The translations under genes and the position numbers were made by a program. From Candidatus Omnitrophota bacterium (lineage in GTDB: Bacteria > Omnitrophota > Gorgyraeia > Gorgyraeales > Gorgyraeaceae), in contig JBDRBM010000034.1 in the NCBI GenBank assembly GCA_043822665.1, positions 3,757-67,756 on the forward strand: a stretch of 64,000 nt of DNA, written 5' to 3'. The notes under the pieces were generated by a model, which worked only from the letters and a program-made list of their open reading frames with translations, was not told the DNA's origin and made no database searches. Below are positions 3 through 51,126 of this stretch, piece after piece (positions within the stretch are counted from its first letter, which is position 1; the number at the start of each line of letters is the position of its first letter).

Positions 3-335
3 AGGGGTTTGTCTGTACCTAAGGCAGAGATTGTACTTGATACAATCAACAAACGCGCGGCCTTTCATATAAAGCAGCTATTGCGGTCCGCGCTTGACAG
101 TGCTGAAAAAAGATTCAAACTCTCAGCAGCGGATCTTTTTATTTCCATGGCAAAGGCAGACAAGGGGCCGATGCTTAAGAGATTTAGGGCCGCCTCTATG
201 GGCCGCGCCACCATGATCAAACACAGGACTACACACATCACGTTGGAGCTGGACAAGATAAAAAAACCGGAGAATAAAACAGTAGAAAAAGAGGTCAAGA
301 AAAAGGTAAAGAGAAAAACGACGGTTAAAAAATAA
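3..335 (+). CDS. rplV: 50S ribosomal protein L22 (N-terminus lies upstream of the window)
   Basis: Frame is open to the window edge. KGPMLKRFRAASMGRATMIKHRTTHITLEL matches the L22 core. It directly precedes rpsC as in S10 operons and has a Lys-rich C-terminal tail. Confidence 0.9.
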   Translation, partial: RGLSVPKAEIVLDTINKRAAFHIKQLLRSALDSAEKRFKLSAADLFISMAKADKGPMLKRFRAASMGRATMIKHRTTHITLELDKIKKPENKTVEKEVKKKVKRKTTVKK

Positions 336-9441: not shown

Positions 9442-9837
9442 ATGGCGCGAATTTCAGGCATAGATTTACCAAAGGAGAAACGTATAGAGATAGCCCTGAC
9501 CCATATTTATGGCCTGGGCCGTCCTTCTTCGAACATGATATTGAAGGCCGCGGGTGTTAATCCTGATACAAGGACAAAGGATCTTAAAGAAGAAGAGATT
9601 TCCAGAATAGCCGCGATAATACAGAAAGAATATAAGGTTGAGGGTGACTTAAGAAGAGACGTCTCTCAGAATATAAAACGCCTTGTAGACATAGGGTCGT
9701 ACCGAGGGTTTAGGCATAGAAGGTCATTACCTGTAAGAGGGCAAAGGACGAAGTCAAATGCCAGGACAAGAAAAGGCCCAAGAAAGACCGTAGGTGTGAC
9801 CAGAAAAGGAAAGACCCAGGCAGCGCCGGAGGCATAG
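9442..9837 (+). CDS. rpsM: 30S ribosomal protein S13
   Basis: [27 protein letters not shown]. Confidence 0.96.
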
Positions 9838-21627: not shown

Positions 21628-22023
21628 GTGAGATCAAGACAAAAAGCGCTTTGCGTAGCAGAATTAGCTAATGTAAAAAAAGCTGAAGGTATTGTGATAT
21701 TAGATATGCGCAAGCTTTCTAATGTTACTGATTTTTTTATAATAATGACCTCTAGCTCTGCTACAAGATCACAGGCAATCGCGGACAATATAAAGGAAGG
21801 CCTGTTTAAGGCAGGCGAACCCATTTCGAGCATCGAAGGGTACAATGACACAGATTGGGTGCTTATAGATGCCCATAATGTCGTTGTTCATATATTCAAT
21901 AGAACAGCGAGATTGTTTTATAGCCTTGAGAGCCTATGGGCTGATGCGCGCAGAGTTAAACTATGTCAAAAAAATCAAAAAGCGACAAAGAAACCCTTGA
22001 AAAAAACCTTAAAAAGAAAATAA
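21628..22023 (+). CDS. rsfS: Ribosomal silencing factor RsfS (Iojap)
   Basis: VILDMRKLSNVTDFFIIMTSSSATRSQAIADNI and WVLIDAHNVVVHIF. GTG start; Lys-rich tail. Confidence 0.88.
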   Translation: MRSRQKALCVAELANVKKAEGIVILDMRKLSNVTDFFIIMTSSSATRSQAIADNIKEGLFKAGEPISSIEGYNDTDWVLIDAHNVVVHIFNRTARLFYSLESLWADARRVKLCQKNQKATKKPLKKTLKRK

Positions 22024-23093
22024 AAGAACTTTTCACCCTATATGATATTGGTAAATCTATAACATCCACTCTTCATCTGGACGAAGTTCTAAAACTCATC
22101 ACCAGAAAAGCCGCGAAGATAATGAACGCCTCTTCCTGTTCAATACGGCTTCTTAACGAAGCAAAGCAGGAGCTGGTCTTGAGGTGCGCCTATGGCCTTG
22201 ACCATGAGTCTCACAGGATTAAAAAGAGCCTTAAAGTTGGAGAGAGCATCGCCGGCAGAGTTGTTAAAAAGGGGAAACACTATATTATTAACGATCTTAG
22301 AAATGAGCGTCATTACAAATATCCTCATCTCGCAAGACAAAAAGGCCTTCGTTCGCTTGTGACCGTGCCTCTTGTGCAAAAGAGCAGGATAGTAGGAGTT
22401 CTCAGTATCTACAGTAAGAAACCAGGCATGTATACAGACGAAGACGCAAGGCTTCTTTCTATGTTTGCCAGCCAGGCGGCAATTGCCATAGAAAATGCGA
22501 GGCTTTATGAGCAGGCAGAGACAAGCTATATCAATACTATCAGGACGCTATCGAATATCATTGATGCCAAGGACAGCCATACTTACGGACATTCAGAGCG
22601 CGTGATGGATCACTCTATGAACATAGCTAAAGAGCTGGGGCTTGATGGCCGTGATATTGAGACATTGAAGTACGCAAGCCTTTTGCACGATATAGGGAAA
22701 ATAGGCATAGATGTCGGCATACTCAGGAAGCCGTCAATGCTTACGGATGAAGAGTGGAAGATAATGATAATGCACCCTGTCCTGGGTTCAAGTATAGTAG
22801 AGCAGATAGGATTTTTAAATGACCTGGCGCCGATTATAATGCGTCACCACGAAAGATATGACGGTAAAGGTTACCCTGGCAGGCTGAAAAAAAATAAGAT
22901 ACCGATAGGGGCCAGGATACTTTCTGTCGCGGATGCCTATGAATCCATGGTCTCGGACAGGCCCTACAGAAAGGCCCTGTCGCTTAAAAAGGCCGAAGAA
23001 GAGCTTTTAAAGAACTCAGGTACTCAATTTGACCCCAAAATAGTCAGGGTATTCGTGAAGATGCTGAACAGGGAGAGAAGACGGGAAAAGTAG
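21963..23093 (+). CDS. GAF-domain / HD-GYP-domain protein (probable c-di-GMP phosphodiesterase)
   Basis: N-terminal GAF-like region, then HSERVMDHS, LLHDIGKIGI and HHERYDGKGYPGRL (HD-GYP signature). Confidence 0.85.
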   Translation: MSKKSKSDKETLEKNLKKKIKELFTLYDIGKSITSTLHLDEVLKLITRKAAKIMNASSCSIRLLNEAKQELVLRCAYGLDHESHRIKKSLKVGESIAGRVVKKGKHYIINDLRNERHYKYPHLARQKGLRSLVTVPLVQKSRIVGVLSIYSKKPGMYTDEDARLLSMFASQAAIAIENARLYEQAETSYINTIRTLSNIIDAKDSHTYGHSERVMDHSMNIAKELGLDGRDIETLKYASLLHDIGKIGIDVGILRKPSMLTDEEWKIMIMHPVLGSSIVEQIGFLNDLAPIIMRHHERYDGKGYPGRLKKNKIPIGARILSVADAYESMVSDRPYRKALSLKKAEEELLKNSGTQFDPKIVRVFVKMLNRERRREK

Positions 23094-44264: not shown

Positions 44265-44293
44265 TTGACAATAGCAGATTTATGTGGTATAAT
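44265..44293 (+). promoter_or_regulatory. Consensus sigma70 promoter with extended -10
   Basis: TTGACA (44265-44270), exactly 17 nt, TGgTATAAT (-10 at 44288-44293). About 230 nt upstream of ATG 44526. Confidence 0.7.
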
Positions 44294-44445
44294 TATAGTG
44301 TATAAAGAGATATATTATACTTTAAAAAAATACTTTAAAAGGCATTTTAATTATATATTTTTTAAGAGGTTAGGTATATTAGTAAAACCTTTGGCAGGTG
44401 GGGAGGCCGAAGGCATAAATAGCCTGGTGACTTTTAGAAAGTCAA

Positions 44446-44493
44446 AACCTGAATACCTAAGGGTTGTAACTTTACGGTATATCAGGTTTTTTC
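44446..44493 (+). terminator. Terminator-like hairpin inside the long 5' leader (possible attenuator)
   Basis: AACCTGA (44446-44452) pairs with TCAGGTT (44482-44488). Inner pairing is CCTAAG/CTTA(C)GG, followed by TTTTTTCTGTTT. It lies 33 nt before the start codon. Confidence 0.5.
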
Positions 44494-44525
44494 TGTTTAG
44501 TTATATAATGAGGAGATAAAATATC

Positions 44526-45929
44526 ATGAAGAGAAAATGGAGCCAATATTTATATAGTATAATATTTTTTCTAGGCCTAATCTTGGCGGTAATGCCATTA
44601 GATGCTATTGCTGCTTTTACTCTTAGCGTTACTCCTTATGAAGGCGGTTATGATTTAAGATACGGCAAAGTAAGCTCAGTCATTGGATGGGTCAATAAAG
44701 AAGTGAGTGTTTCGATAAATTCCGATCTTCAAAAACGATATCGTCTTGTTCAAACACTGGCAGAACCCCTTACTAATTCTCAAGGCGAAAATATATCAAT
44801 GGATAGTCTGCGCGTTTATGGTCTGCGAGGATCCAGTAAATATGGCACATTGAGCGTAGAAAATGAGGTCCCGGTAAGACTAGGCAGAACTATTATCTAT
44901 ACGTCAAATCAAACAGGTGACTCGGATTCATTTATATTGGTTTATAAGCTCAGCGTTCCCGGAGATCAGCAAGCGGGTTTTTATCGCGGTAGAATTAGCT
45001 ATGTGCTTGAGCCGGTTGATTCTCTGTCAGAGGCTGTAACAGTACAGCTTAATATTTATGTTGATGTGGAAGTCAACGCTAAAATAGAAATAAGCACTTA
45101 CTTGGGCAGAAAGAGCATAGAGCTTAAAGATTCAGGCGATGAAAACGATAGATACAAGGAGGTTTTGGTTAACATCATAGGCAGTTTTGGTGAACAGTTT
45201 CGCATATCACAGGTAGTCAGCGAGCCTCTGGCAGACGCTATGGGGAAAGAGCTTCCATTTGATTCTGTGAAATTCAGGATACAGGGCGCGAAGAAGGGGG
45301 TCCCCGTAGTTAATGATTTTACATCCTTATCTCTTCAGCCAAAGTTGCTCTATAAATCCAGCGCTAAGGGGGAAACAGACAATTTCTTAATAGCCTATAA
45401 ATTAGACGATTTAACTAAAGCAAGATCAGGCATATACACAACGAAGTTAATGTATGTGATGGAAGGGGGTAATTTTCTGAAACAGGAGCTGATCGATGCT
45501 GTGGAGTTAAAAATAGATATCCCGCAAATTTTTGATTTTATTGTCAAGCCCGAGGTCGGCGGTAAAATAGAATTTAGAGATTTAAAGCCTTTAGCGCCAT
45601 CTAAAATAAACGAGGTGTTAATTGAAATCAGGACAAATATAGGCAAGATGTATCAGGTAAGCCAAAATCTGGTTTCAGAACTGACTAGTCCTGAAGGGAA
45701 CGTTATGCAGCATAAGAATTTTACTCTAAGAGAAGAAGGCGGGACATCAGGCGGAATATTGAACTGCGCTGAAAAGACAATGGTTAAAACAGGAGAAACA
45801 GTTTTATTTGTCTCTAATAAGGAAGGGGCCCCTGATAGCTTTAAGGTGATATATGAATTAGGCGTTCCGCTTAATATAATATCAGGAGATTATTCTACAA
45901 GAATTACTTATTCATTAACCGAAATATAA
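44526..45929 (+). CDS. Secreted protein with three tandem ~145-aa fimbrial-subunit-like repeats
   Basis: GAGGAG SD. Signal peptide MKRKWSQYLYSIIFFLGLILAVMPLDAIAA. Three internal repeats each carry ..EV.V.I....G..[YF][RQ][LIV].Q.[LV]...L....G. Each ends in S....G..D.F.[LIV].Y.L......G.Y...[IL].Y.[LM].E (GFYRGRISYVLEP / GIYTTKLMYVMEG / GDYSTRITYSLTEI). Confidence 0.75.
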   Translation: MKRKWSQYLYSIIFFLGLILAVMPLDAIAAFTLSVTPYEGGYDLRYGKVSSVIGWVNKEVSVSINSDLQKRYRLVQTLAEPLTNSQGENISMDSLRVYGLRGSSKYGTLSVENEVPVRLGRTIIYTSNQTGDSDSFILVYKLSVPGDQQAGFYRGRISYVLEPVDSLSEAVTVQLNIYVDVEVNAKIEISTYLGRKSIELKDSGDENDRYKEVLVNIIGSFGEQFRISQVVSEPLADAMGKELPFDSVKFRIQGAKKGVPVVNDFTSLSLQPKLLYKSSAKGETDNFLIAYKLDDLTKARSGIYTTKLMYVMEGGNFLKQELIDAVELKIDIPQIFDFIVKPEVGGKIEFRDLKPLAPSKINEVLIEIRTNIGKMYQVSQNLVSELTSPEGNVMQHKNFTLREEGGTSGGILNCAEKTMVKTGETVLFVSNKEGAPDSFKVIYELGVPLNIISGDYSTRITYSLTEI

Positions 45930-46018
45930 AGAAAGGAGGGTATACGTAATGTCAAAAATTACACAGAGTTCGAGGGATTTATTTTTAAGTAAAATCAACG
46001 GAAAAGGAGGTGAGAAAG

Positions 46019-46708
46019 ATGAAAAGGTCAATTATTTTTTTAATGATTTTCAGCTTGGCAGTAGTTATGTGTTGCATGAATTTGCAAGCCGCGCCTAGCG
46101 CCAGCAAAAACATCACTGTGAATGCTGTAGTGCCAAATTTGTCAGTTGAGATAGATATTACCATACTTAAATTCACGGATGGTAACGATGATAAAGATCC
46201 TTGGTCAAATTCAACAGAGGTGACAAGCATGAGCTTTGGCGCGCTTACGAATAGATTGGCTGATGGCAAAGGCGCTGGACTATGGTATGCTGAAGCTGGT
46301 TTTTGCGTGAATGTTTATGCGCAAGGTTATGGGCATAAGTATGAGGTAAAAAGCACTTGCACCGGCCTTGCCAGCGGTTCCAACAGATTGCCGGATAATA
46401 GTTTTGGCCTTACGCCAGTTTATTCTGCGGATGATTTGTGGGATATTACAGATCCGACCAGCAGACAAGGTGATATGCCCACAGCCACAGGCGCTCAATT
46501 AGGCTCAAGTGGTTCCGCAGTTGCTACAGACATGCTTATTTACAGGAGCGATAATCCGTCAACAGCAAGGATCATCCAGGCTTATTACGGGCTTCCTCCT
46601 TACGAAATTGGCGGAGCAGACCCGTTTCCTGATTTTGAGCGTATTCCATTGAGTCAGGCATCAGGGACATATACGGGAACAGTGACAATAACTATTGTTG
46701 CTATATAA
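46019..46708 (+). CDS. Secreted single-domain putative fibre subunit
   Basis: AAGGAGG SD. Signal peptide MKRSIIFLMIFSLAVVMCCMNLQAA. N-terminal ITVNAVVPNLSVEIDI...MSFGAL and C-terminal SGTYTGTVTITIVAI resemble the first and last strands of chaperone-usher/SCPU/DUF4402-type subunits. Confidence 0.7.
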   Translation: MKRSIIFLMIFSLAVVMCCMNLQAAPSASKNITVNAVVPNLSVEIDITILKFTDGNDDKDPWSNSTEVTSMSFGALTNRLADGKGAGLWYAEAGFCVNVYAQGYGHKYEVKSTCTGLASGSNRLPDNSFGLTPVYSADDLWDITDPTSRQGDMPTATGAQLGSSGSAVATDMLIYRSDNPSTARIIQAYYGLPPYEIGGADPFPDFERIPLSQASGTYTGTVTITIVAI

Positions 46709-46816
46709 GATATTTAGCGTCAAAGCTATGTAGTAAGAGTTTTATCAAACATTACATTGGTTGGCGATTATCTATTTTTTTGTTTACTCGTACTAAGTGA
46801 GAAATGAAGGTGCAAA

Positions 46817-47659
46817 ATGCGTTTATCCAGAACATTTAAATGTTGGCTTTTAGTGTTTCTGTTTCTTTTTATGCCGTATCTAGTAGAGGCTATTGAGATT
46901 ATACAGATAGATCAGCCTAAAATAAGGCTGAATGTTTTGCCTGGAAGAAAAAAGGCAGGTACAATCATGGTAAGCAATCCTTCTTCTGAAGCAAAACATA
47001 TTAAGGCATATTTAGAAGACTGGGTATATCTTGGTGCAGGGAATGGTTCTAAAGAATTTAAACCAGCAGGCACTACAGAATTATCAGCGGCTAATTGGAT
47101 TAGTTTTTCACCGGCTGAATTTACCGTGTCGCCGTATGGAAATAAAAAAGTAAGTTACACTATCCAGATTCCAGAAGACGCGAGAGGCGGTAATTACGCG
47201 ATTCTTTTCTTTGAGAGTTTATTGGGAGAACCTCCTGAGATAGAAGGCGGAGTGGTTGTTCCTTTGGCTATCAGGATAGGCGCGTTATTTTATATCGAAT
47301 CTGAAGGAACTATAGTTAGAAAAGCCGGCATAGAAAACATTAAAATTGAAAGAAAAGAAGTTAATTCGCCTTTAATGCTGCAGGCAGACTTTACAAATAG
47401 AGGCAATGTGGATATTACAGCAAACGGCACCTTTTATATTATAGACAAAAACGGCATGGTTTATGGCCGCGGTAGATTTAATGATGTTTATACTTTCCCG
47501 GATTATAAAGTAAAACTATACGCGGAGTGCAAGGAAGTAATAACCGCGGGAGAGTATGACTTGGTAATAACTCTTGAAATTGGCGGAGGAGAGACTTTAG
47601 TAGAAGAATTAAGAATCAAGATAACTTCAGACGGTAAAATTATTACATTTACAGATTAA
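46817..47659 (+). CDS. Secreted two-domain Ig-like protein (PapD-/DUF916-like); candidate periplasmic chaperone
   Basis: Signal peptide ..WLLVFLFLFMPYLVEA. Domain 1: IRLNVLPGRKKAGTIMVSNPS...WISFSPAEFTVSPYGNKKVSYTIQIPEDARGGNYAILFFE. Domain 2: LMLQADFTNRGNVDITANGTFYIIDKNG...GEYDLVITLEIG. The function is inference only. Confidence 0.6.
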   Translation: MRLSRTFKCWLLVFLFLFMPYLVEAIEIIQIDQPKIRLNVLPGRKKAGTIMVSNPSSEAKHIKAYLEDWVYLGAGNGSKEFKPAGTTELSAANWISFSPAEFTVSPYGNKKVSYTIQIPEDARGGNYAILFFESLLGEPPEIEGGVVVPLAIRIGALFYIESEGTIVRKAGIENIKIERKEVNSPLMLQADFTNRGNVDITANGTFYIIDKNGMVYGRGRFNDVYTFPDYKVKLYAECKEVITAGEYDLVITLEIGGGETLVEELRIKITSDGKIITFTD

Positions 47660-47686
47660 ACGTGTAATAAAGTGAGGCTGGTTTTT

Positions 47687-50497
47687 ATGAAGAATTTTGC
47701 GAAAAAGGTATTCATAATTTTTTTTATCGCTACTTTTTTAAATCATTTAATAACCCCTTCGTTTTCGTATACTGGGATACCAAATTTTTTATTAGAGTTA
47801 GGAATCAAAGACTATGAGGATGGAAATTACAACGCGGCGCTAAGTGAATTCAATAAAGTTCTTTTAGTTGAACCTGGACATGAATTGGCTAAAGAATATA
47901 TAAAAAAGATTAGAGGGACGGTTGATGACACACAAAAAGAGACTGCGCCTTCTCCGCAACATGAAAAACTTTCCGGAGAGCTTTTAAGAGAACAGGAAGG
48001 TTTTGTCGAAAAGGCTTCTATCACCGTACCCTCTCCTCCTGTAAGCAAGAAAACCCTTTTGCCTCAAACACGCTTTGACCAGCCTAAAGAATATACTACT
48101 GCTGCTGCAGGAAAAGAGGAGAAGAAAAAAGTAATTGATAGGCTATATTTAGACAGGGGGAGCCTTGAATTAATCTTTATGCCTATAAAGATAGAAGAGG
48201 GTCGCAGCATTATTATTGAGGGGAATAATATAATTCGTTTCTTAGAGGTTACGCCAAATATTATTAATGCTGAAAAGATGTCTCGTGATGAAATTCAGAT
48301 CATAGGCAAGAATATAGGTTTTACGTATCTGCATATTTGGGATAAAAATGGGCGTTGGACAGTTTATTTTCAAGGCTTGCTTCCTAAGCCCACAGGCCCA
48401 ACATTAGAAGAAGAAATGCGCTTAGCTGAACAAAGGGCATCTACTTTCAAATTGCGTTATTCCACGGATTGGTTTTTATTTGAGGAAGGCAGGAGATTGA
48501 ATTCTTTGGATAGACAGTCTTATTCCTATGGTCATTCTTTTTCTCTAACAGGCGAGACGCCTTATGGGAATTTTGCAGGGGATGCCCAGATTAGGACTTC
48601 TCAAGAGACCACGGATTTAACCTATTTATCCTTGAGATTAAGAGACGGTAGATTTGGCCCTTTCGAGGATTTTAATCTTAGGGGATTTGATTTTGGCCTG
48701 CCATTTTCCAACCTTGCTTACGGAGGCGCTGGCTTAAGAGGCATTATGCTGGAGTCACCTGCTTTTGACAAAAAAATAAATTATACTGTATTTTGGGGGA
48801 GAGAGGGCGGCGGCAGATATGGCGGACTTTCTCCAGGCTTACTCGAGACAAAAGATTCTTTTTTAAGAGGCCTTGATATTAATTATCTGCCTTCAGAAAA
48901 TCTGGATTATGGATTTTCTTATTTTTATGGCTGGGGAGCTGATAGAGAGGAGTACTTAAATCCTCAATCGTATGATGGGAGAATAAATTACCATTTTCCT
49001 AATCTGGACTTAGGTTATGAAATAAGCAATGATTCAAAGAAATACGCCCATTTGATAAAATCAGCTTATAGTCTCCCAAAACTGAAACTTACCGCTGAAT
49101 TTCGGGATATTGATAAGGACTTTAAAAGCATTACAGGTTTTGGCTGGCATCTAGGGGAGATAGGAGGGCTTTTTACAGCGCATTATCTTCCTTTCGCGAC
49201 TACACGAATCTTTAGCAGGTTGGATGTTTACAAAGACAGGCTATTTCCAAATCCTGACAAAGGGGATAGGCTGAACTTAGATTATAGTGTTGATTTGACC
49301 CAGGACCTAACCTCTTCCAGTGTATTGAGATTAGATTATAACATCCAGGATGAGCAGGGAAATATATCTCCCCGCAGATTTCAAGCCACGGGAGTGTCTT
49401 TAAATAAATCCTATGATTTTATGAAAGGCCTGTCTCTATACCTTGGTTATCGCAATAGCATCAGTACAAACTTTACATCGCCTAGCTTGGATTACAAAAA
49501 CGACAAATTATCCACGGGGTTAAGGCTTAATCTTATAGGCAATCTTTACTATTACCTCAATAAAGAGGTAAATTGGCTGGAAGAGACGTTTACCGGGATA
49601 GGCTCTCGTCCAGAAGCGCTGGAAATGGGATTTGATTGGTATTATCAAGTATTTGACAGCCCTTTTTATAGCACAATGCGGATTGCTTATCGCGATGAAG
49701 AAGACGCGTTTTCTTCTGTTAGTTTTCTAAGCGGGGAAGACTATATAGAAGGATACGGCGAGATTTCTTATCACCCAAATCCAGACACTGAGATGTATTT
49801 TTCTACGCGAGTGCGTAATGTCTGGGCTGATAGCCCTATAATAGACAAGCGCGTGGAATTTGAGTTGAGGACTGGATTGCGGTATCTTTTTGATACAGGG
49901 TGGAGCTGGAGTTCAGTCGGTTCAATAGAAGGATGTGTTTTTAACGACTTGAATAGCGATGCAATAAGACAGAGTAACGAACCCGGCATGGAAGATGTAA
50001 AGTTATATTTAGGTAAAGATATGGTTCAAGTTAGTGATAGCCAGGGGTATTATCAATTCAAGAAAGTGAGAGCAAAAAAAGTATCAATAGCCATAGATCC
50101 CTCAACATTGCCTCCAGGTTTTGTTTTAACTACATCAGAGGTGCGGGAGGTAGATATAATCCACAATAGAACAGCACGATTAGATTTTGGAGTTGTATCG
50201 CGTTCTGATATCACTGGGATTGTATTTGAGGACTTAAATGCAAATGGCAAGTTTGACTTTAATGATAAAGGCATAGGGAAGGTTATTATTACGCTTGACG
50301 ATGGACAGGTCGCGACTACCAACGGTGCCGGGAGTTATATATTTAGAAATGTTGCGGTAGGCGATCATACTCTTTTTCTGGATATAAACAGCGTGCCTCT
50401 CTATCTTCTGCCGCAAGTTCCCCTTATTAAAAAAATCACCCTTTTCGAGGGGTTATCTTACCAGCATAACATTCCCTTGAGAAAGGGTACGGATTAA
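47687..50497 (+). CDS. Large outer-membrane-type protein: TPR, CpaC/RcpA-N-like domain, predicted beta-barrel and two C-terminal SdrD-B/Cna-B-like repeats
   Basis: Signal/TM MKNFAKKVFIIFFIATFLNHLITPSFS. TPR-like YEDGNYNAALSEFNKVLLVEPGH. IKIEEGRSIIIEGNNIIRFLEVTPNIINAEKMSRDEIQIIGKNIGFTYLHIWDKNGRWTVYF (approx 48164-48376) fits the pilus-secretin N-terminal domain pattern. About 500 aa are aromatic/Gly-rich with alternating hydrophobicity. The C-terminal repeats GCVFNDLNSD...EPGMEDVKLYL...SDSQGYYQF and GIVFEDLNANGKFD...IGKVIITL...TNGAGSYIF start at approx 49919. No secretin or usher motifs were recognised. Confidence 0.7.
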   Translation: MKNFAKKVFIIFFIATFLNHLITPSFSYTGIPNFLLELGIKDYEDGNYNAALSEFNKVLLVEPGHELAKEYIKKIRGTVDDTQKETAPSPQHEKLSGELLREQEGFVEKASITVPSPPVSKKTLLPQTRFDQPKEYTTAAAGKEEKKKVIDRLYLDRGSLELIFMPIKIEEGRSIIIEGNNIIRFLEVTPNIINAEKMSRDEIQIIGKNIGFTYLHIWDKNGRWTVYFQGLLPKPTGPTLEEEMRLAEQRASTFKLRYSTDWFLFEEGRRLNSLDRQSYSYGHSFSLTGETPYGNFAGDAQIRTSQETTDLTYLSLRLRDGRFGPFEDFNLRGFDFGLPFSNLAYGGAGLRGIMLESPAFDKKINYTVFWGREGGGRYGGLSPGLLETKDSFLRGLDINYLPSENLDYGFSYFYGWGADREEYLNPQSYDGRINYHFPNLDLGYEISNDSKKYAHLIKSAYSLPKLKLTAEFRDIDKDFKSITGFGWHLGEIGGLFTAHYLPFATTRIFSRLDVYKDRLFPNPDKGDRLNLDYSVDLTQDLTSSSVLRLDYNIQDEQGNISPRRFQATGVSLNKSYDFMKGLSLYLGYRNSISTNFTSPSLDYKNDKLSTGLRLNLIGNLYYYLNKEVNWLEETFTGIGSRPEALEMGFDWYYQVFDSPFYSTMRIAYRDEEDAFSSVSFLSGEDYIEGYGEISYHPNPDTEMYFSTRVRNVWADSPIIDKRVEFELRTGLRYLFDTGWSWSSVGSIEGCVFNDLNSDAIRQSNEPGMEDVKLYLGKDMVQVSDSQGYYQFKKVRAKKVSIAIDPSTLPPGFVLTTSEVREVDIIHNRTARLDFGVVSRSDITGIVFEDLNANGKFDFNDKGIGKVIITLDDGQVATTNGAGSYIFRNVAVGDHTLFLDINSVPLYLLPQVPLIKKITLFEGLSYQHNIPLRKGTD

Positions 50498-50781
50498 CGG
50501 ACGTAGAATGTGTAAAGGTTGTGCCTTGTTTCCTGCTGTACCAATTGAGGTTTTAAGCTAGAGTCTTCTTCTTTTGTTCCTTCCTCAGCTTCTTCCAGGA
50601 TATTTACATCTCGGTAGGTTTGTTCTTCAACGAGCGGCGCGTTTAATCCAGGAATCTCTGGTATGCTGCAAGATACAGGTATGGAATGGCTTGCCTTTCC
50701 CGCATACGAAGCGTTAGCCGTAAAACATAAAACCATCAAACCTATTAGAATCAATAGGGTTATGCGAGGTATTTTTTTCAT
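50494..50781 (-). CDS. Small secreted protein (95-aa precursor), function unknown
   Basis: GAGGTGAG SD before the ATG at 50781. Signal peptide MKKIPRITLLILIGLMVLCFTANASYA. Acidic middle region; ends LYTFYVR. Its stop codon overlaps the stop of the convergent 941-aa gene by 2 nt. Confidence 0.7.
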   Translation of the reverse strand: MKKIPRITLLILIGLMVLCFTANASYAGKASHSIPVSCSIPEIPGLNAPLVEEQTYRDVNILEEAEEGTKEEDSSLKPQLVQQETRHNLYTFYVR

Positions 50782-50837
50782 TGTTCTCACCTCTTTTTTG
50801 AAATCATACTTCAAAAAGGGTGAGAACCTGTTCAAAT

Positions 50838-50867
50838 AAAAAAACCATTCTTTCGAATGGGTTTTTT
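50838..50867. terminator. Bidirectional intrinsic terminator (expression platform of the riboswitch candidate on the - strand; 3' end of the + strand operon)
   Basis: Stem CCATTC (50845-50850) / GAATGG (50855-50860) with loop TTTC, an A-run on the left and a T-run on the right. Both strands therefore read hairpin plus U-tract. Confidence 0.7.
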
Positions 50868-50880
50868 ATTTGTTTACGAA

Positions 50881-50990
50881 GCCCAAGTTTACCTGGACTA
50901 CGGCAGCCTGACAGCCTTATCTTTTTGAGATTTAGGCTCAAGGCTTTGCGCCCTACCCTTTCGAAGTAGTTAGCCTTTCCTGATTTTCAA
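50881..50990 (-). promoter_or_regulatory. Candidate class I c-di-GMP riboswitch (GEMM-I) aptamer
   Basis: The minus strand reads GGAAAGGCUAACUACUUCGAAAGGGUAGGGCGCAAAGCCUUGAGCCUAAAUCUCAAAAAGAUAAGGCUGUCAGGCUGCCGUAG. Features seen: a GAAA-capped hairpin, the GCGCAAAGCC core, a CCUAAA receptor-like element and a 3' GGCUGCCG. These are in the same order as the Vc2-type aptamer I recall from memory. Confidence 0.6.
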
Positions 50991-51007
50991 AGATTTCTCC
51001 TAATTAA

Positions 51008-51036
51008 AGTATACACTATAAACAGTCCACATTCAA
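51008..51036 (-). promoter_or_regulatory. Sigma70-like promoter driving the riboswitch candidate
   Basis: On the minus strand: TTGAAT (51036-51031), 17 nt, TATACT (51013-51008). The predicted start is ~10 nt before the aptamer. Confidence 0.6.
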
Positions 51037-51088
51037 GCAGTTCTGGTAACAGAGAAATCTTTGAGAGAAGCTTTAAATTCAACTTATC

Positions 51089-51126
51089 CACAATGTAGGT
51101 GACCCTTAAGGGTCACCTACATTGTG
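51089..51126. repeat. 17-bp perfect hairpin with TTAA loop, same family as 16959-16998
   Basis: CACAATGTAGGTGACCC-TTAA-GGGTCACCTACATTGTG. Compare CACATTAGTAGGGGACCC-TTAA-GGGTCCCCTACTAATGTG. Confidence 0.75.

Follow-up and report, generated by a model that had tools for sequence, protein, structure and literature searches.

A predicted class I c-di-GMP riboswitch in the leader of a small secreted-protein gene that converges on a fibre-like gene cluster in Omnitrophota

What kind of RNA is encoded on the minus strand at positions 50838 to 51036 of a 64,000-nucleotide (nt) stretch of Candidatus Omnitrophota DNA (GenBank assembly GCA_043822665.1, contig JBDRBM010000034.1; the whole stretch is referred to as the window), directly upstream of a gene for a small secreted protein, and does it control that gene? 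The initial annotation, made from the letters of the sequence, had proposed a class I cyclic di-GMP (c-di-GMP) riboswitch-like leader with its own promoter and terminator. The reading that we favour, taken as a whole, is that of a functional GEMM-I c-di-GMP riboswitch in the 5′ leader of the monocistronic small-secreted-protein gene, in which c-di-GMP would promote transcription termination, and on balance we consider it probable. That the element is a genuine class I c-di-GMP aptamer is virtually certain.

The identity of the aptamer was assessed with Rfam covariance models. The c-di-GMP-I (GEMM-I) model, RF01051, matched positions 50985 to 50899 of the minus strand with 67.2 bits (gathering score, 35; E value, 5.5e-11 for the whole window) over model positions 1 to 87 of 87, and this was the single match above gathering thresholds in the entire 64-kb window. 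The c-di-GMP-II model, RF01786, run as a control, gave no match even at an E value of ≤10 between 50600 and 51250, by which a c-di-GMP-II identity was rejected, and a permissive Rfam scan of the same region returned nothing besides RF01051 near threshold. Both searches had been proposed in the initial annotation, and the class that it named was borne out; its block-by-block alignment with Vc2 has been replaced by the covariance-model result, which supports that class, and of the element of about 110 nt that it described the structured RNA stands, the aptamer itself being 87 nt long and the remainder flanks. The aptamer and its two hairpins are the following.

50899 to 50985, minus strand: c-di-GMP-I (GEMM-I) aptamer, matched by the full RF01051 model
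50948 to 50974, minus strand: P2 hairpin, with basal GC pairs, the strands CUACUUC and GGGUAG and a GAAA tetraloop (Rfam alignment and compensatory changes in relatives)
50905 to 50945, minus strand: P3 hairpin, with a tetraloop-receptor-like internal loop, CCUAAA/UAAGG (Rfam alignment; compensatory changes in most pairs)

Relatives were gathered by searches with the small protein and with the 941-amino-acid (aa) protein of the convergent gene, which gave 36 loci from Omnitrophota-type metagenome-assembled genomes (MAGs) and metagenomes. In 24 of the 36, Rfam called an aptamer of the GEMM-I clan whose position and orientation were those seen in the window, and two further loci with full flanks and no Rfam call (L007 and L013) also carried the aptamer, interrupted by insertions, which brings the number to about 26. 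Wherever a related locus offered enough sequence, the small-protein gene followed the aptamer and converged on the large gene, as in the window. When the window aptamer was aligned with 21 homologues, P2 and P3 were recovered by RNAalifold with compensatory changes in 16 of the 21 consensus pairs, and the equivalents of the ligand-contacting positions G20, A47, and C92 were kept in all 22 aptamers. In the window, the G20 equivalent is the G at 50975, as had been predicted, unpaired and directly before the basal GC pairs of P2; the A47 equivalent is the A at 50947, the first A past the closing GC of P2; and the C92 equivalent is the C at 50903, within UGCC. The GAAA-capped hairpin and the CCUAAA receptor-like element, both already noticed in the initial annotation, were found in P2 and P3 of the Rfam alignment, where, at the level of sequence, the tetraloop occupies 50962 to 50959 and the CCUAAA/UAAGG loop aligns to the CUAA/AuG receptor columns of RF01051. 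The entire leader folded more stably than shuffled sequences (z = −5.9).

Because the equivalents of G20, A47, and C92 are canonical, c-di-GMP and not cyclic GMP-AMP (cGAMP) is the expected ligand; binding itself we infer from these conserved positions. Two variant identities were rejected for the window: that of GEMM-Ib (3′3′-cGAMP), since its defining A20 is not present and position 20 is G, and that of the c-di-GMP-I-GGC variant (RF03167), since its defining A47G change is absent and the window and all relatives read CGCAAAG or CACAAAG. Sensing of another ligand, such as 3′3′-cGAMP or another dinucleotide, would not be without precedent, as changed specificity is known within GEMM-I (GEMM-Ib, and the variants modelled in Rfam as GGC and UAU) and several relatives scored best with RF03167, but it is extremely improbable, given that position 20 is G and not A, that position 47 is A and not G in 22 of 22 aptamers, so that no variant-defining change is present, and that the best model for the window is RF01051 itself. 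The RF03167 calls in relatives arise because that model has a shorter P3 and an explicit P1; assignment of these relatives to the GGC variant was likewise rejected, A47 being kept in all of them.

For Vc2, the GEMM-I aptamer of Vibrio cholerae, the structural roles of tetraloop docking and ligand contacts are known from published crystal structures. The window aptamer resembles it in the P2 GNRA tetraloop that would dock into a P3 receptor and in the canonical G20, A47, and C92. Vc2 closes its junction with a short P1 formed by the 5′ and 3′ ends, whereas in the window the bases after C92 pair into a downstream hairpin.

The leaders fall into two subtypes. The window-type leaders (the window, L024, L012, L004, and L019; n = 5) share the tetraloop/receptor aptamer, a 3′ end reading CCGUA, an extra hairpin, the motif YCGUAAA, and a conserved terminator stem (ACCCAUUC/GAAUGGGU). 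In the L002-type leaders a 5′/3′ P1 covaries (CCU/AGG, ACU/AGU, CUU/AAG, and ACG/CGU), and the terminator reads ACCCUAAAG-n-UGC-CUUUAGGGU.

Does the leader have a promoter of its own? The one proposed initially, TTGAAT and TATACT spaced by 17 nt, is present where it had been placed (51036 to 51031 and 51013 to 51008).

51031 to 51036, minus strand: −35 hexamer TTGAAT, conserved in the leaders of relatives
51008 to 51013, minus strand: −10 hexamer TATACT after a 17-nt spacer, conserved in the leaders of relatives
50986 to 51001, minus strand: short 5′ leader, AGGAGAAAUCUUUGAA, from the inferred start to the aptamer

By itself the consensus match was not significant (3 sites found versus 2.4 expected). 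Of 24 related leaders, 19 had TTGAAN-16..18-TATAYT in the 90 nt that precede the aptamer, and the promoter call is thus supported by its conservation upstream of the aptamer in relatives, not by the consensus match alone. Transcription would start near 51001, about 16 nt upstream of the aptamer.

Downstream of the aptamer, the following features lie between P3 and the end of the small gene.

50877 to 50902, minus strand: extra hairpin, CG-U-AGUCCAGG-UAAA-CUUGGGCU-U-CG, seen in minimum-free-energy (MFE) folds and present in all five window-type leaders
50833 to 50872, both strands: symmetrical intrinsic terminator, called on both strands (inverted repeat I2)
50783 to 50827, minus strand: 20-bp hairpin sequestering the Shine-Dalgarno (SD) sequence, with the anti-SD arm GUUCUCACCCUUUUUGAAGU (−21.9 kcal/mol)
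50786 to 50793, minus strand: SD sequence, GAGGUGAG, 4 nt upstream of the ATG (from the sequence)
50494 to 50781, minus strand: regulated gene, encoding a 95-aa secreted protein with a signal peptide, the motif VSCSIPEIPGLNAPLVEE, an acidic linker and a C-terminal ..YTFYVR (open reading frame [ORF] analysis)

The basal CG/CG pairs of the extra hairpin use the CG at 50902 to 50901, directly after C92, which is the usual site of the P1 3′ strand. It is found in five of five window-type leaders with differing stems (GUCC/GGAC, UUCCAA/UUGGAA, GC(U)CG/CGGC, and AUCC/GGGAU); as the MAFFT alignment lost the register of the arms, covariation was read from these differing stems, without a formal pair count. 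Replacement of the canonical P1 by this hairpin is possible. In the minus-strand reading, the terminator has an A-tract at 50872 to 50862, a core stem-loop, CCCAUUC-GAAA-GAAUGG, at 50861 to 50845, and seven U at 50844 to 50838, so that the GAAA-capped hairpin and U-run of the initial annotation are there as described. Its arms extend to 18 nt, and with the A-tract upstream and the U-tract downstream it is terminator-like on both strands; the stem ACCCAUUC..GAAUGGGU is conserved in the window-type relatives. The terminator lies about 40 nt downstream of the aptamer, without overlap, and the 26-nt hairpin and the A-tract stand in between. The SD at 50793 to 50786 and the ATG at 50781 are also as initially placed. 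The hairpin that buries this SD pairs 12 of 13 positions at −16 to −4 and has equivalents in L024 and L012. The extra hairpin, the SD-burying hairpin, the separation of the terminator from the aptamer, and the convergent overlap with the 941-aa gene described below go beyond the initial annotation.

In which direction would the switch act? The aptamer state was simulated by enforcing P2 and P3 in folding, and the controls for ON behaviour were two second GEMM-I elements that we observed at the 5′ end of the convergent cluster in two relatives (L004:324-418 and L022:2017-2119), in which the terminator 5′ arm is the aptamer's own P3 3′ strand (ON layout). At equilibrium the full leaders had a terminator probability, P(terminator), of about 1 with or without the enforced aptamer, which was uninformative, whereas that of the second GEMM-I of L004 (L004b) went from 1.00 to 0.00. 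The value of about 1 is expected, because the full-length RNA of an OFF switch relaxes to the terminator fold (PMC9262584). The discriminating test was to fold the RNA from its inferred start through the end of the terminator stem but without the U-tract, which at the decision point is still part of the RNA:DNA hybrid. P(terminator) then changed, from the free to the aptamer-enforced state, as follows.

Window: 0.75 to 0.98
L019: 0.12 to 0.99
L002: 0.34 to 0.99
L011: 0.57 to 0.99
L022: 0.10 to 0.93
L034: 0.00 to 0.99
L033: 0.07 to 0.99
L016: 0.46 to 0.91

In the remaining leaders it was near 1 in both states, and no competing fold was predicted for L004, L012, or L024. An OFF-like rise upon enforcing the aptamer was thus seen in about half of the leaders (the window, L019, and six of the L002 type), and an ON-like fall was seen in none of the 19 convergent-side leaders, the largest drop being 0.02 (L004) compared to 1.00 to 0.00 in L004b.

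ON switches are common among the GEMM-I elements of adhesin and pilin genes. An ON switch in the window, by which c-di-GMP would promote read-through and the small secreted protein would be made together with the fibre/adhesin-like cluster at high c-di-GMP, would fit this habit of adhesin and pilin genes; an ON-type GEMM-I precedes the cluster itself in L004 and L022, and coexpression of partners is biologically attractive. We nevertheless find it unlikely, because the terminator 5′ arm lies outside the aptamer, with the 26-nt hairpin and the A-tract intervening, because the enforced aptamer caused no ON-like loss of the terminator in the 19 leaders, unlike in the ON controls, and because no ligand-stabilised helix able to compete with the terminator was found. 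ON logic via an overlapping terminator was rejected for the convergent side, where the terminator is separate from the aptamer and no ON-like drop was observed. The same contrast holds for the pilM GEMM-Ib riboswitch of Geobacter, a cGAMP-responsive ON switch (PMC9262584): pilM and the ON-type elements of L004 and L022 are like the window in aptamer fold and in association with fibre- or pilus-type genes, but their terminator 5′ arm lies inside the aptamer 3′ strand while the window terminator does not overlap, and pilM has A at position 20 where the window has G.

The competing folds draw on the aptamer strands. In the window, CUUCGA.AGGG (the P2 loop and 3′ strand) pairs with CCCA.UUCGAA (the terminator 5′ arm and loop), and in a second pairing GGAAAGGCUA pairs with UGGUUUUUUU. 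For the RNA from 51001 to the U-tract this competing fold is the MFE structure (−45.6 kcal/mol), and P(terminator) was 0.47 to 0.63 in the free state versus 1.00 with the aptamer enforced. When transcripts were truncated, the partner of the terminator 5′ arm was the P2 3′ strand in three leaders (the window, L012, and L019) and the P1 3′ strand in many leaders of the L002 type. In L034, the aptamer 5′ strand UAAAGGCA paired with UGCCUUUA (the terminator loop and 3′ arm), and GGGG of the P1 3′ strand paired with CCCU of the terminator 5′ arm. The conserved terminator-loop bases UGCC of the L002-type leaders extend the 8-bp complement UGCCUUUA to the aptamer 5′ strand UAAAGGCA, and this complementarity to aptamer strands in the competing fold accounts for the conservation in sequence of the UGCC loop and the terminator stem in this type. 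A single conserved antiterminator in the five window-type leaders was considered and rejected, pairing of the P2 3′ strand with the terminator 5′ arm being found in three of the five and owing partly to the palindrome UUCGAA.

Several results weigh against the favoured reading. No 5′/3′ complement was found for P1 in the window, and no canonical P1 helix could be drawn. The folding tests start from a guessed transcription start. The competing fold of the window is approximately isoenergetic with the terminator (P(terminator) of 0.47 to 0.75 when unconstrained), its complementarity owes partly to the palindrome UUCGAA that stands in both the P2 loop and the terminator loop, the competition vanishes once five further 3′ bases may pair, and the fold was not seen in the window-type leaders L004 and L024. 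Finally, with an SD hairpin of this strength, read-through RNA may be poorly translated, in which case the model is incomplete. OFF logic is favoured because the terminator stands alone, ON behaviour was never seen, and OFF behaviour was found in about half of the leaders; from these folding predictions, promotion of termination by c-di-GMP appears somewhat better than an even call.

Of the characterised systems, the window riboswitch would in function most resemble Cd1, the transcriptional OFF switch in the flgB leader of Clostridioides difficile. In Cd1 the aptamer extends to nt 87, the antiterminator starts from nt 134 and the decision is made at nt 148, and the RNA, once full length, settles into the terminator fold (PMC9262584). 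The two are alike in class, in the order of an aptamer of about 87 nt, a spacer and a stand-alone terminator, and in a decision point about 150 nt from the aptamer start; the window is also predicted to share the competing fold that uses aptamer strands and the relaxation of the full-length RNA to the terminator. Unlike Cd1, the window has a covarying hairpin at the site of the P1 3′ strand, no evident 5′/3′ P1, a much weaker predicted antiterminator, and an SD-sequestering hairpin after the terminator; a small secreted protein and not a flagellar operon is regulated, and the direction is a prediction made here.

In the favoured model, a sigma-70-type promoter would start transcription about 16 nt ahead of the aptamer, and the aptamer would fold into P2, with its GAAA tetraloop, and P3, with the receptor, so that c-di-GMP could be bound at the junction via the equivalents of G20, A47, and C92. 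The expression platform would be the stand-alone intrinsic terminator about 40 nt downstream of the aptamer. Binding of c-di-GMP would lock the 5′ half of the aptamer, the terminator would form and transcription would stop (OFF, as in Cd1); in the ligand-free RNA, the aptamer 5′ half (the P2 3′ strand and the junction) would pair with the terminator arms and RNA polymerase would read through. Read-through transcripts would meet a second barrier in the SD-burying hairpin, whose role we infer from its predicted pairing.

The equilibrium result, in which P(terminator) of the full-length leader was about 1 irrespective of the aptamer, is also what a self-contained small RNA (sRNA) would give, made up of promoter, aptamer, and terminator and always terminating, which would bind c-di-GMP and act in trans or as a sponge while the small gene is expressed otherwise. 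The terminator is indeed strong (18-nt arms and U7) and is followed by a second barrier, which in the window is the SD hairpin and in many relatives another terminator. We regard such an sRNA as highly unlikely: the 64 nt between terminator and ATG, mostly hairpin, contain no promoter-like site, the aptamer and gene are strictly co-oriented and adjacent in about 26 loci, and an equilibrium state with the terminator formed is likewise found in characterised OFF switches (PMC9262584). Control of the small gene in cis through the terminator we consider quite likely.

The product of this gene, which lies downstream of the element on the same strand, is a protein with a signal peptide, in keeping with the small secreted protein of the initial annotation; its database entry, from a Candidatus Omnitrophota MAG, names it a hypothetical protein. 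Its family comprised 24 distinct sequences of 73 to 122 aa, each with a signal peptide and a variable acidic linker, in which the motif S-x-[ST]-[IV]-x-VSC-[ST]-IP-x-[IV]-PG-[LV]-N-x-P-LIEE and the C terminus [IV]VKT-x-Y-S-R are both conserved. Sequence searches returned no Pfam, NCBIfam, or PDB relative of the small protein.

Could the riboswitch act on the convergent gene as well? The features concerned are these.

47672 to 50497, plus strand: convergent gene for the 941-aa protein, the last of a secreted-protein cluster, with T2SS-T3SS_pil_N and SdrD_B domains
44526 to 50497, plus strand: the fibre-like cluster as a whole

In the window, the stop codons of the 941-aa gene and the small gene overlap by 4 nt, and 12 of 19 loci have them −3 to +26 nt apart, which leaves no room for a terminator between them. 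From the overlapping stops, the shared terminator at 50845 to 50860, which is the sole good plus-strand terminator past the 941-aa gene, and the finding of no strong minus-strand terminator after the small gene, overlapping convergent transcripts are therefore predicted as likely. A read-through transcript would cross the small gene and enter the 3′ end of the 941-aa gene, whose own transcript would have to run back to the shared terminator. Transcriptional interference, or duplex formation with the cluster mRNA, would then be under the gate of c-di-GMP-dependent termination, an antisense action that may coexist with control in cis. All of the features just named would suit it, among riboswitch classes the enrichment in antisense positions is greatest for those that sense c-di-GMP (152 cases; P = 4.6e-62 [PMC9943018]), and the effect of an OFF switch here would have the same direction as that of the ON switches that precede the cluster in L004 and L022. 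Two known antisense riboswitches, the S-adenosylmethionine (SAM) riboswitch at ubiG of C. acetobutylicum and the B12 riboswitch (AspocR) at pocR of Listeria, are like the window, as modelled here, in having a riboswitch-controlled terminator opposite a convergent gene, and OFF logic in the window would likewise relieve interference with ligand present (PMC9943018). Unlike those cases, the window has a conserved protein-coding gene between the riboswitch and the opposing gene, and because this gene intervenes, antisense action is only a possible additional effect. As the intervening ORF is a conserved, selected protein gene, sense regulation suffices, and in seven loci the stop-to-stop gap is 56 to 209 nt; as the main action of the riboswitch, antisense is doubtful.

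At the other end of the cluster, no second GEMM-I was found upstream in the window even at an E value of ≤5, and the leader at 44265 to 44525 had no Rfam match. In this leader we observed a perfect consensus promoter, TTGACA-17-(TG)TATAAT (12/12), at 44265 to 44293, ahead of the cluster. The 5′ untranslated region between it and the first gene (44526) spans about 230 nt (fold z = −2.95) and contains, at about 44446 to 44494, a terminator-like hairpin, AAAACCUGAAUACC..GGUAUAUCAGGUUUUUU. A structured leader, modelled as R1, was observed upstream of the fibre-like cluster in 11 relatives; it consists of (U)CCGG(C/U)A, a covarying hairpin (often with a UGGAGG loop), UGCCACGGA, a linker, and AGCCGG.

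Stronger R1 copies: L007:2523-2610, L008:266-354, L015:1877-1973, L016:1124-1214, L020:1029-1115, L023:2674-2755, and L010:2730-2816
Weaker R1 copies: L005:181-269, L022:2559-2649, L011:2552-2637, and L009:2065-2152

The 3′ strand of R1 doubles as the terminator 5′ arm, which is an ON-type layout, and no Rfam match was obtained for it (best, 18.8 bits versus 47). Because it occupies the genomic slot of the ON-type GEMM-I of L004 and L022, R1 is a candidate orphan riboswitch. Membership of the window cluster leader in R1 was rejected, its 11.2 bits covering the terminator part only. More tentatively still, a two-ended c-di-GMP gate could be imagined on a chaperone-usher-like fibre cluster, with a 3′ OFF-type GEMM-I that would stop antisense transcription at high c-di-GMP and a 5′ ON-type GEMM-I, as seen in L004 and L022, or perhaps the candidate leader element of the 11 relatives, and with the window-type aptamer, in which a 3′ hairpin would stand for P1, as a permuted junction; we give this combined proposal a low probability.

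What does the cluster encode, and does the organism handle c-di-GMP? Two further genes of the window bear on this.

46817 to 47659: 280-aa secreted protein, with a two-domain beta-sandwich model (predicted local distance difference test score, 92.4)
21963 to 23093: protein with GAF and HD-GYP domains and the motif HHERYDGKGYP (GAF_2, 92.7 bits; HD_5, 133 bits)

The model of the 280-aa protein matched the two-domain pilus chaperones CfaA, FimC, Caf1M, PapD, and CsuC (probability, 1.00; template-modelling score on the target, 0.5 to 0.6) and WxL-interacting proteins. It has more than 110 relatives, all taxon-named ones from Omnitrophota/Omnitrophica or unclassified bacterial MAGs, two of which were named “PapD” by JGI. 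A 467-aa cluster protein had a sub-threshold match to the C-terminal domain of Pam pilins (Pam pili are described in bioRxiv 10.64898/2026.03.03.709456), and a fold search with a 232-aa beta-rich cluster protein gave no significant match. The 941-aa protein was assigned the two domains given above, and its Pfam, NCBIfam, and PDB searches are also listed as without significant match. From these proteins, a chaperone-usher-like fibre system may reasonably be proposed. The GAF/HD-GYP protein, already placed at these positions in the initial annotation, is likely a c-di-GMP phosphodiesterase as judged from its domains and motif, and with this gene in the window the organism would handle c-di-GMP; a motif search of the window found no c-di-GMP domains besides those of this protein.

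Several observations were made alongside. A perfect 13-nt inverted repeat (TCAAAGATTTCTC/GAGAAATCTTTGA; arms at 51064 to 51052 and 50999 to 50987, with 52 nt between them) brackets the riboswitch promoter; its length was reached in 0 of 2000 shuffles, it was absent from all relatives examined, and it could be a regulator site or the remnant of a rearrangement. Between this promoter and the divergent TPR gene lies a 38-bp perfect palindrome (51089 to 51126; two 19-nt arms, CACAATGTAGGTGACCCTT and AAGGGTCACCTACATTGTG), which is unique in the window and has a U-tract on neither strand. In five relatives, one or two inserted hairpins (45 to 95 nt) stand between the P2 3′ strand (GGGGC) and GCAAAG and push the aptamers to or below the Rfam gathering score. 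Tandem terminators after one aptamer are usual in the L002-type leaders: the first terminator is followed, still ahead of the SD, by a second terminator-like hairpin with a U-run. About 14 loci encode, between the riboswitch and the small secreted gene, a 90-aa nonsecreted protein (RVVTFLNR-EVDFLDKLGKDALFS), which had no significant Pfam, NCBIfam, or PDB match and whose gene was not found in the window by tblastn.

L001:7411-7561, L008:8684-8802, L028:3447-3562, L007 at about 9650 to 9830, and L013 at about 9620 to 9800 (the last two approximate and on the minus strand): insertion-bearing GEMM-I, with the extra domain in the P2 internal loop
L002:240-290 and equivalents in L008, L015, L028, L032, and L033: second terminator-like hairpin
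L002:302-574 and equivalents: gene for the 90-aa protein

The riboswitch class is well known and a routine Rfam scan would find the window copy, which as a riboswitch is not surprising. Its interest is in the context: the Omnitrophota host, the small-protein family, the cluster with a chaperone fold, the convergent overlap, and the possible replacement of P1 by a 3′ hairpin. For Omnitrophota, a phylum of which nearly all knowledge comes from metagenomes, the locus points to an RNA sensor that takes part in c-di-GMP signalling, and it would tie this signal to two previously unannotated components, a family of small secreted proteins and a cluster that includes a protein with a pilus-chaperone fold. 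The link to c-di-GMP would offer a handle for giving the cluster a role in surface attachment, and the conserved convergent overlap provides a natural setting well suited to testing whether c-di-GMP riboswitches act in antisense, as has until now been predicted mainly from statistics.

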